This document shows, in pieces, positions 43,962 to 52,137 of a stretch of 58,800 bases of DNA (positions within the stretch are counted from its first letter, which is position 1; each line of letters opens with the position of its first letter). Source of the stretch: an uncultured Verrucomicrobiales bacterium (GTDB taxonomy: Bacteria; Verrucomicrobiota; Verrucomicrobiia; Limisphaerales; UBA1100); the NCBI GenBank assembly GCA_964013675.1, contig CAXGXE010000003.1, forward strand, positions 1 through 58,800. The letters are read 5' to 3'. The translations under genes were made by a program, and so were the position numbers. A model generated the notes under the pieces. It made no database searches. It was not told the origin of the DNA and worked only from the letters and a program-made list of their open reading frames with translations.

Positions 43962-44074
43962 TAGTAAAAAAACACGCAGTATGCGTGAAAAATACTAAAA
44001 CTTAATAGAGAAGTTGGTTAGATTTCACATTTTTCAATTAAGATAGCCTTTTTTCTGTTGGCATTAACCTTGCT
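43962..44074 (+). promoter_or_regulatory. Upstream palindromes + sigma-54 promoter of array gene 1
   Basis: GCGTGAAAAATACTA 43983-43997 (partner site ending CACGC at 43977); TGGCATTAACCTTGCT 44059-44074. Confidence 0.8.
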
Positions 44075-44117
44075 TGAAAATTGGTCGCTGCGAAATTAAC
44101 CCTCGCATAACCCAAAA

Positions 44118-45152
44118 ATGAAAAATATTAAAGAAAAGGGATTTACCCTAATAGAATTGTTGGTTGTTATTGCAATCATTGGCATATTAGCCAGCATGCT
44201 CCTTCCGACCTTGGCCAAGGCTAAGAAGAAGGCAAATCGGCTTAAATGTTCCGGTAATCTTAAGAGTATCAATCAAGCCTTTGCCGGTTGTGATTCAGAG
44301 TACGGCAACGTTCCATGGATGATCACTGAAAAAGATTCTGATGCGTCCTTTAAGGATGCTTTCGGCGAAGACGGAGCAAATAATCCGCGTTATTGGAACG
44401 TAAGAAACATTTCACTTTTGTGGCAAGTTCCTGCACTGAAAAACTCATTGGGAACTTGTGCCTCGGTGCTATCCCCGAGCGATCCAGCTGCAAAACGCGA
44501 AAATGACCGGGAAAAAGCCCGAGGAGATGGCTGGGGAGAGCAAGACCAGACCAAGACCGGGGCCGTTAGTAAATACACCGGCAAGCCTATCGTATTCTGG
44601 AATGAACCAAAGACAGGAACACGTACAACCGCATCCCTAACTAGGTTAGCCCAAAGCTACGGTGTTTGCATGGGTGGCGATACACTCGTTCCTGAGACTA
44701 TCATGGCCGTGACCCGTAACGCTGATGGCGATGCTTATTGTAAGAATAAAAAGGACGGATACGTGCGGCCAGATGGGAAGGTCTTCATGGCCTCTCACAT
44801 GAAATACTTTAATCTGGCTAGTCGCCATCGTAATCACTTGCAATTGGATCATGCGAGTGCGGGCAAGTGGATTGACCCTACGCAAAATGGTGCTGATCAC
44901 AGTGGCCAGGTGCCCCTTAAATATACACCAAACGCCACGGCCCAGCTTTACAACTACAAGGGCGGAGATAGTAAGTACACCATGAATGGTCTGGATGGAA
45001 GTCAGGGTAACATTGCCAAGGCTGATGGAAGCGTGGTTCAAGGTAGCGATGCTGACATGCAGGAAGCCATCAGGGCCCACACCGAATCTGAAGGCGGAGT
45101 TCTTGGGAGCGAAGTTAATCTCGGTGTTTTACGCCCTAATCAAAGTCGTTAG
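44118..45152 (+). CDS. Pilin-like array gene 1
   Basis: [45 protein letters not shown]. Confidence 0.92.
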
Positions 45153-45184
45153 AGGCCCCAGATACCATTAATTAATACTTAATC

Positions 45185-45212
45185 AGCCCCTCCATTTGGA
45201 GGGGCTCTTTTT
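45185..45212 (+). terminator. Intrinsic terminator
   Basis: AGCCCCTCC/GGAGGGGCT stem + T tract. Confidence 0.8.
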
Positions 45213-45249
45213 GTGGCATGCGGCATCCAAAAACGGGAAGCGCTCACAT

Positions 45250-45606
45250 GTACGCACTGACGATAAGGTCTTTATGGCGGCCTGGTAAAACTGGCAACAG
45301 CTCGGAGGGCGCGATCACATGCATCTCGAACTCAATCATTCGAGTGCTGGCGCATGGAGTGACCCGGTTGACATAGATTCAAGGGAACCTGAGATCAAGG
45401 CAACTTTTCCCCATAAAAACGGAGGAAAATATTATTCGATGATTGGTATGGATGCCTCTCAAGGCAACTACGCTTTGGCTGACGGTAGCGTTGTGTAGGG
45501 AACTGACGTGGATTTGAGCAGTGCTATCCAAGCTCCCCTTAGTGATGGAGGCAGCGTGCTTACCGAGAAAAACGCTGCTGTGTTACGCCCCAACACCACA
45601 AGATAA
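45250..45606 (+). pseudogene. 3' half of a pilin-like paralogue with two in-frame stops
   Basis: VRTDDKVFMAAW*NWQQLG...LELNHSSAGAWSDP...GKYYSMIGMDASQGNYALADGSVV*GTD...VLRPNTTR; TAA 45286, TAG 45496. Confidence 0.85.
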
Positions 45607-45643
45607 CACTCTAAACAAGACGCGGCCCAGTCCGCGGATAAAT

Positions 45644-45724
45644 AAAACGGCCTCTCCTTCGGGAGAGGCTGTTTTGTTTAACCCTCACATTTTTGAACAA
45701 AAAAGCCCCTCCCGTAGGAGGGGC
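45644..45724. terminator. Two adjacent terminators (+ strand 45644-45675; - strand 45699-45724)
   Basis: AAAACGGCCTCTCC-TTCG-GGAGAGGCTGTTTT and A6-GCCCCTCC-CGTA-GGAGGGGC. Confidence 0.75.
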
Positions 45725-45744
45725 GGAGAATAACGGGTTGTGGG

Positions 45745-46089
45745 CTATGGCTGTTCCACAGTGGCTTCCGGCAGGGCTGCCTTTAATGCACTGATGCCCG
45801 CTGCGGTGATCTTGGTTCCGTCCATAATCACCACGGTATCCAGCTTCTTGCAGGATTCTAACGTTTTCAACAAGGCATCATCACACCCCTCAGTATTCAG
45901 CGTCACCTGCTCGATATTCCCGGCATCGGACTGAGAATATTGCGCGCCGGCATTGTCTAAAGCGGTGGCGGCCGCTTGCTCTTCCGCGGGCAGTTCTCCC
46001 TGCGGGGCGTCTTCAGAAACAGTTTCGCCGCCACAGGCCACGAAGAATACCGGCAGGAGCACGGAAATAAGGATGTTTTTAAGTTTCAT
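45745..46089 (-). CDS. Acidic lipoprotein with LRR-cap-like C-terminus
   Basis: Lipobox FVAC-GG; C-terminal TKITAAGISALKAALP. Confidence 0.8.
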   Translation of the reverse strand: MKLKNILISVLLPVFFVACGGETVSEDAPQGELPAEEQAAATALDNAGAQYSQSDAGNIEQVTLNTEGCDDALLKTLESCKKLDTVVIMDGTKITAAGISALKAALPEATVEQP

Positions 46090-46213
46090 TGGATGAGTTT
46101 ATTTTTGTGGTTTGGTTTGGGTAGTTGGTCTGCATACAAAGAAGCAGGACTGAAAGATTGGGCAAACTCATTCGGAATAGCAATCCAAAAACCACTCAAA
46201 ACCCACCATATTT

Positions 46214-46315
46214 GCGTGAAAATCACGCACTTTTTCCGCTTTGATGTATGATACGCGTGATTTTTTCGCTTATTTCTGTGACTAACACTTCAACTTCAAT
46301 GGCATAAAAACTGCG
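46214..46315 (+). promoter_or_regulatory. Upstream palindromes + sigma-54 promoter of array gene 2
   Basis: GCGTGAAAATCACGC 46214-46228; GCGTGATTTTTTCGC 46255-46269; TGGCATAAAAACTGCG 46300-46315. Confidence 0.8.
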
Positions 46316-50474: not shown

Positions 50475-50499
50475 TTCGGTAAATAATTAAAAAACACAA

Positions 50500-50526
50500 G
50501 ACGCCCCTCAATGAGGGGCGTTTTTT
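50500..50526 (+). terminator. Intrinsic terminator (identical to 49324-49350)
   Basis: GACGCCCCTCAATGAGGGGCGTTTTTT. Confidence 0.85.
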
Positions 50527-50538
50527 CTGCTTCTATAA

Positions 50539-50630
50539 GCGTGGAAATCACGCCCAATCTTGATCTGCTAAACAAGCTATATGTGTTTTTACTGAGTTTT
50601 TGAGGTTTATGAAGTGGCACGAAAAATGCA
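50539..50630 (+). promoter_or_regulatory. Upstream palindrome + sigma-54 promoter of array gene 5
   Basis: GCGTGGAAATCACGC 50539-50553; TGGCACGAAAAATGCA 50615-50630. Confidence 0.82.
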
Positions 50631-50686
50631 GGTACCAATCATCTGTGGCTAAATTGTCACAAAACCCGTTTAACCAACCAAAAACT

Positions 50687-51676
50687 ATGAAAAAAACACA
50701 AAAAGGATTCACGCTCATTGAGCTGTTGGTCGTGATTGCCATTATTGGCATTCTCGCCTCCATGCTGCTCCCCACCCTGGCCAAGGCTAAGAAGAAGGCC
50801 AACCGCCTGAAATGTTCGTCGCAAGTTGGCCAATTAGCCAAGGCTTTCACAGGATCAGCTAACGACCAAGACGGGGCTTTCCAGTGGGAGATGACCCAGG
50901 AAGATCTCGATTCGATAGGAGATGACGCTAATTCTGAATTGGGCATCGCCTCACAGCGGATGATTAATGCAGGTCACCCAGGGCCCAAGGCCTCCCACAC
51001 ATACAATTGGGGTGTTTTTAGGCACATTGAATACCTCTGGGTGAACCCCAATGTTCGGAACTCCTTGGATTCCTCAAAAGTACTGCATTCCCCCTCAGAT
51101 CCAAAAACTAAGAGGAATAACGACCGTGATTGGAAAAATGGAAAGTTAAGTAATGGTCGTTGGTGCGGTCAGAAAATGCGAACCCGTTACAAAGTTAACA
51201 CCAATGCACAGAGCTATTGTATCCATCCAGGAGGGGACAGTCAGGACGGCAATAAGATCCTTGTCACCACAAGTAACCTGATGGGAGACACGTCAATGGC
51301 TGGTTACAATGCGAACGCCTCCCACCTGATGATTCGAGACCGCCGGGAGAGCTTTGACCAAGGTATTTGGTTATCCGCTTCTCAGATTGGCCAGCAAAAT
51401 GCCGACGGTAATGATTATGTGAGTTTCGTGGGCCCAAGCACTACGGGGAAATGGGTGCGTACTAACCATAACCGGGTATTAAAGACTTTTGACGTTAATA
51501 AGCAACGTGCCTTTTCCGGTTTGGACGCCGGACAAGGTCAAGTGGCGAAGTCTGATGGATCAGTACAGATGACCGATAATGCTGGCCTTCAGCAAGCGGT
51601 CAAAGAGCACGCTGAGTCCACGGGTGGATATAATTCCAACCTGTCAGAGGTCCTGATGACTCCCTATTGCCACTAG
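50687..51676 (+). CDS. Pilin-like array gene 5
   Basis: [45 protein letters not shown] 50687. Confidence 0.92.
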   Translation: MKKTQKGFTLIELLVVIAIIGILASMLLPTLAKAKKKANRLKCSSQVGQLAKAFTGSANDQDGAFQWEMTQEDLDSIGDDANSELGIASQRMINAGHPGPKASHTYNWGVFRHIEYLWVNPNVRNSLDSSKVLHSPSDPKTKRNNDRDWKNGKLSNGRWCGQKMRTRYKVNTNAQSYCIHPGGDSQDGNKILVTTSNLMGDTSMAGYNANASHLMIRDRRESFDQGIWLSASQIGQQNADGNDYVSFVGPSTTGKWVRTNHNRVLKTFDVNKQRAFSGLDAGQGQVAKSDGSVQMTDNAGLQQAVKEHAESTGGYNSNLSEVLMTPYCH

Positions 51677-51692
51677 GATTATCTTAAAACAC

Positions 51693-51727
51693 AAAAAACC
51701 GGGCGGATAACTCCGCCCGGTTTTTTT
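51693..51727. terminator. Bidirectional terminator
   Basis: A6-CCGGGCGGA-TAAC-TCCGCCCGG-T7. Confidence 0.85.
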
Positions 51728-51738
51728 ATTGAGAAAGC

Positions 51739-51912
51739 CTACTCCGAACTTTCTTCATCGGCTCCTTCAATTTCCCCCTCCTCTTCTGGGCTTTGATCAG
51801 CTGGAGGGACATAGTCCGACCCGGTTTCGGGCTCAGAAGAGCAACCAGTATTTACTGTTAAACCTCCAAAACTCAGCATAACAGCGCAGGCTAATAATAA
51901 TGTTTTTTTCAT
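51739..51912 (-). CDS. Small acidic lipoprotein, 57 aa
   Basis: MKKTLLLACAVMLSFGGLTVNTG-C-SSEPETG...EEEGEIEGADEESSE. Confidence 0.8.
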   Translation of the reverse strand: MKKTLLLACAVMLSFGGLTVNTGCSSEPETGSDYVPPADQSPEEEGEIEGADEESSE

Positions 51913-52024
51913 TTTATAAACAATTTCGTAGAGCATTAGTAACTCTCGCTAGTGAATTAAAACAAAATGGTGTTAATCAATTAAAGCTTAAACCATAGGA
52001 TGTTGGAAAACTTTCTTCTCAAAG

Positions 52025-52137
52025 GCGTGAAAAACACGCGCAATTGCGTACATTATACTAGTGATGATTGAAATAAGGGCTAAATACGATAAAAAGTGCC
52101 CAAAAATTCCCCTAAACGGATTGGCACCCTGTATGCT
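52025..52137 (+). promoter_or_regulatory. Tandem upstream palindromes + sigma-54 promoter of array gene 6
   Basis: GCGTGAAAAACACGC 52025-52039; GCGTACATTATACTA 52046-52060; TGGCACCCTGTATGCT 52122-52137. Confidence 0.82.

Follow-up and report, generated by a model that had tools for sequence, protein, structure and literature searches.

In this study, we examined an array of six same-strand genes (44118-52938) that encode prepilin-type proteins of 236-344 amino acids (aa). The array lies in a window of 58,800 nucleotides, the whole stretch of DNA analysed here, from an uncultured Verrucomicrobiales bacterium. We found that the array is very probably transcribed from sigma-54 promoters of the -24/-12 type, under the control of upstream sites for an enhancer-binding protein. 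By the comparisons reported below, the predicted module is a conventional sigma-54 switch that is real and strongly conserved. Its core, shared sigma-54 promoters with an upstream site for one enhancer-binding protein, had been proposed by an earlier sequence-only reading of this DNA. That proposal is supported computationally because rpoN and candidate activators are encoded in the genome, the two motifs form islands in unalignable DNA, the sites are phased on the DNA helix, the module is conserved at prepilin genes of relatives, and no sigma-70-like site was found in the six upstream regions. New here are the phasing in this genome, the distribution of the module inside and outside the order, the monocistronic structure of the array, hints from RNA and a candidate sensor-regulator pair.

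First, we showed that all six array genes are preceded on the + strand, 59-106 nt before the ATG, by the sequence TGGCAY-N6-TGC. In each of them the GG and the GC lie exactly 10 nt apart, within a sequence resembling the sigma-54 promoter TGGCAC-N5-TTGCW. The six elements stand where the sequence-only reading had placed them: at 44059..44073 for gene 1 (TGGCATTAACCTTGC), 46300..46314 for gene 2, 48333..48347 for gene 3, 49476..49490 for gene 4, 50615..50629 for gene 5 and 52122..52136 for gene 6. The corresponding predicted transcription starts are 44085, 46326, 48359, 49502, 50641 and 52148. The window contains seven matches to this pattern versus 1.69 expected, a number reached by none of 100 shuffles; the seventh match is on the - strand (15252-15266). 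Across the whole assembly (here labelled G000; 2.5 Mb in 247 contigs, 87% complete, the window being contig C3), the pattern has 83 matches. The consensus of 52 promoters is TGGCATg-N5-TGCt, 20 of the loci having been picked for carrying the motif. A simple scan for sigma-70-like sites found none in the six upstream regions and 5 matches versus 9.1 expected in the whole region. Moreover, rpoN, whose presence the sequence-only reading had named as a check, was located on contig C126 as an open frame of 519 codons that scores 211 bits on the model of the DNA-binding domain (Sigma54_DBD).

The second element of the module is the palindrome GCGTG-N5-CACGC, the candidate enhancer site. It is exact at genes 2 (46214..46228), 5 (50539..50553) and 6 (52025..52039), and has one mismatch at genes 3 (48184..48198) and 4 (49357..49371). 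The sequence-only reading had assigned a palindrome to every array gene; these five stood, while the site of gene 1 (43983..43997, GCGTG-aaaaa-TACTA, centre -70) turned out to be degenerate, with three mismatches in the right arm. Its half-site is overlapped by an everted CACGC-N5-GCGTG (43974-43988). Two further sites listed for genes 2 and 6 proved weak, the first (46255..46269, centre -39) having two mismatches and the second (52046..52060, GCGTA-catta-TACTA, centre -70) having four. The distance of about 60-135 bp proposed for most sites was slightly too narrow: at the five genes, the palindrome starts 77-150 bp and is centred 70-143 bp before the GG of the promoter.

That reading would have been undermined by a palindrome at background frequency. 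Here, the palindrome is in excess, with 11 matches in the window at no more than one mismatch versus 3.12 expected, a count attained by one of 100 shuffles. The six window matches outside the array are all one mismatch off and have spacers rich in G+C. Over the 250 nt before the promoters, an unbiased k-mer count identified GCGTGA/TCACGC as the top hexamer, present in all six upstream regions (binomial tail 2.4e-7, before correction for about 2080 hexamers), and this was the sole enriched upstream motif. Genome-wide, the exact palindrome occurs ten times, three of them in the array.

The position of the palindromes follows the helical repeat of DNA. Counted from the first G of the GG, the five centres of genes 2-6 lie at -80, -143, -113, -70 and -91, which corresponds to 6.5, 6.5, 8.0, 7.0 and 7.0 modulo 10.5 bp. 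At 10.5 bp the resultant (R=0.947) is the best among periods of 7.0-13.9, with a Monte Carlo p of 0.0023 for these five window sites and of 0.0014 once the sites of contigs C127 and C97 are added (seven genome sites). The weak sites of gene 2 (-39) and of genes 1 and 6 (-70) share this helical phase. Over all loci examined, distances cluster at about 70, 81, 92, 102, 113, 124 and 143 bp, a set that is biased because 20 loci were picked for having the motif. As far as position alone is concerned, the palindromes lie on one face of the helix relative to the promoter, as enhancer sites do.

This phasing also bears on the idea that the palindrome is an RNA or DNA hairpin, part of an upstream terminator or insulator, and not a protein site. 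Indeed, the segment 46213-46229 scores as terminator-like, the palindromes of genes 4 and 5 come 10-15 nt after the terminator of the previous gene, and the one-mismatch variants at 48184 and 49357 could still pair via G-U. We nonetheless consider a hairpin highly improbable. Its stem would have just 5-7 bp around a loop of 3-5 nt, the sequence of the arms is itself conserved beyond the ability to pair, and the variant on contig C97 disrupts pairing. In addition, the distance to the -24 element tracks the helical repeat, and the spacing of about 20 bp between the tandem copies found in relatives is compatible with dimers bound on one face.

We then consider conservation. Protein homology places this genome closest to metagenome-assembled genomes, mostly marine, that are labelled Verrucomicrobiales, Pedosphaera, Limisphaerales or Verrucomicrobiota. 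In ten loci picked by protein homology alone and containing 31 prepilin genes, 28 of these genes have a -24/-12 element 66-121 nt before the ATG, and 15 of the 28 promoters are accompanied by the palindrome at no more than one mismatch. For a broader survey, the composite was defined as an exact palindrome, a gap of 45-140 nt and then the promoter, with the reversed pattern as control. It was found in 82 of the 201 genomes sampled from the order, representing 54 of 119 genera, compared with two genomes for the reversed control. Many relatives carry two copies of the palindrome about 20 bp apart. Among 150 genomes sampled outside the order (50 of the same class and 100 of the same phylum), two had a match. 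The first, G208, has a genuine tandem site followed by a promoter and a prepilin gene; the match in the second, G347, lies in DNA that looks coding and was judged spurious.

Composites mostly stand in front of prepilin genes. Of 21 retrieved from a diverse set of 20 genomes, 14 lie before a canonical prepilin gene and one before an atypical one; behind the remaining six are other genes, including three for secreted proteins longer than 1000 aa. A relaxed composite searched for in five genomes that lack the exact one gave a plausible match only in G091. Altogether, across the sampled genomes the predicted module characterises the regulon throughout the order. Two side observations concern these loci. 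The secreted proteins encoded behind the module at L049, L062 and L063 (genomes G085, G144 and G001) are 1039-1210 aa long. In one genus of the order, runs of 16, 13 or 10 G residues separate the palindrome from the sigma-54 promoter of prepilin genes (L118 and L119 on contigs C13 and C62 of G008, and L116 on contig C45 of G091), with the palindrome centred at -81, the usual phase, or at -74, out of phase; assemblies from short reads are unreliable over such runs. Slippage in the poly-G tract could turn individual paralogs on or off.

With this survey at hand, the possibility that the motifs are functionless, left over from gene duplication or due to chance, appears scarcely credible. The six genes are indeed paralogs, whose products are 80-98% identical over their first 45 residues (22-55% past residue 45). 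However, the 150 nt upstream of the six promoters show a pairwise identity of 55.1%, versus 54.8% in shuffled sequence, and because this equals the shuffled controls, the two motifs are islands in unalignable DNA. Both motifs also exceed their shuffles, and the reversed control is found in two genomes versus 82 for the composite. The persistence of the candidate motifs, as judged from these comparisons, reflects selection and not the shared ancestry of the paralogs.

A further alternative is that the palindrome binds a protein other than the enhancer-binding one, such as a repressor, an architectural protein or a regulator of the divergent lipoprotein genes, while the sigma-54 activator works from elsewhere on the DNA or from solution. 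At four of the six genes, the upstream region also belongs to a small divergent lipoprotein gene, and FlgR and CtcC are described, in excerpts of PMC3162934, as activating sigma-54 without DNA binding. We hold this alternative to be improbable. Indeed, no divergent gene accompanies the sites of genes 4 and 5, the palindrome is in helical phase with the -24 element and occurs together with the sigma-54 promoter in 82 genomes, it is the only enriched upstream motif, and all candidate activators have an HTH_8 domain.

The predicted regulon extends past the array. Twenty-one prepilin-type N-termini were detected genome-wide with a regular expression, and at least one further pilin-like gene, on contig C127, is placed under the same module, with both the palindrome and the promoter present. 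On contig C97 the palindrome occurs together with a TGGCGC variant of the promoter, and on contig C36 a promoter is present with no upstream palindrome found within two mismatches. Other sigma-54-like promoters were identified on contigs C15 (5965, 12507 and 16714), C54 (3317), C40 (6733) and C9 (15653). The genes behind them resemble, on the basis of their N-termini only, flagellar rod, hook and export genes and dnaK, and the palindrome was not found at these promoters. Three other exact palindromes that were inspected, on contigs C58, C113 and C25, fall inside open reading frames and were set aside. Therefore, the palindrome seems to mark a pilin-specific sub-regulon. The remaining promoters suggest that flagellar genes form a sigma-54 sub-regulon of their own, which the activator encoded on contig C86 may serve.

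Altogether, we propose that the array works as follows. Sigma-54 RNA polymerase would form a closed complex on TGGCAY-N6-TGC. The palindrome of about 17 bp, (T)GCGTG-AAAAT-CACGC(A), located 70-143 bp upstream on a constant face of the helix, would be bound by an NtrC-family enhancer-binding protein as a dimer or, in some relatives, as tandem dimers. The activator would then oligomerise, loop across the AT-rich spacer and open the promoter using ATP. Transcription would begin about 12 nt past the GC and stop at the hairpin terminator behind each gene. Binding, looping, start sites and dependence on rpoN are steps that we infer from the DNA sequence.

Behind each of the six genes lie a G+C-rich hairpin and a run of T residues, predicted to act together as an intrinsic terminator, at 45185..45206 (gene 1), 47380..47401 (gene 2), 49323..49347 (gene 3), 50498..50524 (gene 4), 51693..51726 (gene 5) and 52961..52984 (gene 6). 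These terminators are oriented on the + strand, with that of gene 5 predicted to work in both directions. Each array gene is best read as a monocistronic unit. RNA of these pilin-like genes is found assembled in marine metatranscriptomes. The data consist of assembled contigs from four runs of one study, covering two samples, and such contigs cannot prove starts or ends. Nor can their depths rank the genes, as the suggestion of the sequence-only reading that site quality and number may tune subunit stoichiometry would require. They exist for all six genes, and the 32 contig pieces examined (of 108) are each confined to one predicted unit. The left end of a gene 1 contig is at 44086, preceded by two unaligned letters (predicted start 44085), and that of a gene 3 contig is at 48363 (predicted start 48359), while two gene 5 contigs from two runs of one sample begin at 50641, the predicted start itself. 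This agreement to 0-4 nt at genes 1, 3 and 5 is a weak hint in favour of the predicted starts. Right ends at 50507 and 51704 fall within the terminator hairpins of genes 4 and 5, and another at 45160 lies 25 nt before the terminator of gene 1. The bins 45410-46315, 47826-48127 and 51752-52053 have zero contig cover in the four runs, and such gaps prove nothing.

Which protein would bind the palindrome? The sequence-only reading had one enhancer-binding protein controlling the whole array and advised listing such proteins. The genome encodes three full activators with REC, AAA and HTH (HTH_8) domains, on contigs C86, C23 and C32. None of the three reaches an NCBIfam equivalog cut-off, and the PilR model is not among their best hits. 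When activators from 18 genomes of the order were typed on the C-terminal helix, they fell into five groups, A-E. Group A (C86) was found only in families f1 and f9, and is probably flagellar because FlbD is among its best hits. Group B (C23) is the nearest to NtrC, with 510 bits versus a cut-off of 559. The regulator gene is preceded by a kinase gene in group C (C32) and by a PAS kinase gene in group D, which is present in three sampled genera of the same family. Because groups B, C and D all belong to the core of the 18 typed genomes, the order itself cannot tell them apart.

On the basis of its distribution across genomes, the kinase-regulator pair on contig C32 is our leading candidate for the activator, a choice that we rate somewhat short of an even chance. 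The group C helix signature occurs in 82 of 101 genomes inside the order and in one of 60 outside it, namely G208, the sole outside genome with a genuine module. Two module-positive genomes without the signature, G004 and G082, have group C orthologs with a variant helix (61% identity), which score 598-604 bits versus 339-352 for the next match. In G000, G004, G082 and G208, the group C regulator is preceded by a kinase with about 5-6 hydrophobic spans. Pfam finds no sensor domain, PAS included, before the HisKA domain of this kinase in G000. A complex prediction between the membrane domain of the C32 kinase and the mature N-terminus of pilin 4 gave a score of 0.00, which is evidence neither way.

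Within the same sigma-54 scheme, it is possible, with distinctly lower probability, that the activator is instead the group B protein on contig C23 or the PAS-kinase-linked protein of group D. Both, like group C, are core in the typed genomes. Group B is the closest to NtrC, and its signature is nearly confined to the order, with two exceptions among 60 outside genomes (G201 and G224), both without the module. Escherichia coli NtrC sites have a 7-3-7 layout with outer TGC...GCA, and the palindrome seems to resemble them in both respects. Yet in G208 the module and a group C ortholog occur without the group B signature, the converse of G201 and G224. Group D might have escaped detection in an assembly that is merely 87% complete, and it does occur in the three genera of the same family. 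However, its signature (G-[IMV]-SRRT-x-HRK) is single-copy in 39 of 60 genomes of the phylum outside the order, versus two of 150 for the module, and no group D gene was detected in G000, which keeps at least seven modules, six in the array and one on C127.

Several observations weigh against the proposed switch or against the C32 pair as its activator. Gene 1 retains the left half-site only, 13 of the 28 promoters in the homologous loci lack a palindrome within one mismatch, and the exact composite is absent from 119 of the 201 genomes of the order. The left ends of the RNA contigs of genes 2 and 4 lie 46 and 42 nt downstream of the predicted start. No activator gene was detected within about 8 kb of 30 related loci (tblastn, 1e-10). 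There is also no sign of autoregulation: the upstream regions of the activator genes, in this genome and at 20 orthologous loci, contain neither the palindrome nor a -24/-12 pair. The helix signature of group D has no match in the 87%-complete assembly. The composite is present in 31 of 82 genomes of the order with the group C signature versus 4 of 19 without it (hand count), which is a weak link. Finally, the choice of C32 rests on three informative genomes, G208 (group C and module, no group B) and G201 and G224 (group B, neither group C nor module).

The array proteins themselves have in common a prepilin-type leader and an N-terminal helix, and their only Pfam match is the N_methyl motif. 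All on the + strand, the genes extend over 44118..45152 (gene 1, 344 aa), 46394..47353 (gene 2, 319 aa from the ATG), 48399..49301 (gene 3, 300 aa), 49548..50474 (gene 4, 308 aa), 50687..51676 (gene 5, 329 aa from the ATG) and 52228..52938 (gene 6, 236 aa from the ATG). Behind gene 1, the + strand carries the C-terminal remnant of a further pilin-like paralog (45226..45606), with two in-frame stops and without an N-terminal part or a promoter module. A tRNA-Leu (CAG) gene (47481-47567) lies between genes 2 and 3, inside the array. Four small open reading frames on the - strand, at about 43800-43922, 45745-46089, about 47880-48068 and 51739-51936, are divergent from genes 1, 2, 3 and 6, with which they share the upstream regions holding the palindromes; at least three of the four encode a lipoprotein-like leader and an acidic, low-complexity tail. 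Elsewhere in the window (21768-22760), behind a pair of large exported-protein genes, lies a seventh paralog that shares the N-terminus of the array proteins, and neither a -24/-12 element nor a palindrome was found upstream of it.

PilS-PilR control of pilin genes through sigma-54 has also been reported for Geobacter, Myxococcus, Dichelobacter and commensal Neisseria (Nps/Npa). Excerpts of PMC3162934 treat the regulation of pili and flagella by sigma-54 as a general theme. In Pseudomonas aeruginosa, the textbook example, PilS-PilR controls pilA, the PilR site is marked by TGT-N11-AGA and GTCT elements, and PilS is a kinase with six transmembrane segments that contacts PilA (excerpts of PMC6058289). 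The array resembles this system by its pilin-type genes, its -24/-12 promoters and its predicted upstream NtrC-family regulator. The favoured C32 kinase is multi-span (about 5-6), and PilS is six-span in the same excerpts. The array differs by the site, a GCGTG-N5-CACGC dyad instead of the TGT-N11-AGA and GTCT elements described for PilR (PMC6058289). It also differs by regulator genes that adjoin no pilin gene, by the lack of any NCBIfam equivalog reached and of a PAS domain in the C32 kinase, and by a module that would serve many diverged paralogs of 236-344 aa and not one major pilin.

The module also resembles the NtrC (GlnG) sites of glnAp2-type promoters, in being a dyad of about 17 bp located about 70-140 bp upstream, with tandem copies in relatives, a position that depends on the helix face and a predicted activator of the REC-AAA-HTH_8 type. 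In contrast to NtrC sites, its half-site sequence appears to depart from the E. coli consensus, its targets are exported pilin-like proteins and not nitrogen-assimilation genes, and the best NtrC-like protein of the genome scores under the equivalog cut-off. Full-text literature searches, supplements excluded, brought up no report of pilin-like genes controlled by sigma-54 in Verrucomicrobia, and nothing relevant on RpoN promoters of Akkermansia or on sigma control of DUF1559 proteins; for RpoN and enhancer-binding proteins in Verrucomicrobia, the one match dealt with Chlamydia.

By analogy with PilS, which is said to read PilA, one can imagine that the pilin pool is sensed in the whole order: the multi-pass C32 kinase would read the nearly identical N-terminal helix shared by the paralogs, its partner would drive each paralog separately from the phased sites, and in some genera the tracts of 10-16 G would alter the helical phase, so that slippage could switch single paralogs. 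We regard this scheme as speculative and, taken as a whole, rather unlikely. The mechanism of the predicted switch is a textbook one, so its value lies in the definition of a regulon in an uncultured lineage and not in a new principle. Few gene families of Verrucomicrobia and their relatives are as expanded and as poorly understood as those of the pilin-like proteins with a GFTLIELL leader. A defined control module, together with a favoured regulator pair, may thus offer a handle on when these pilin-like proteins are made and on which signal controls them.

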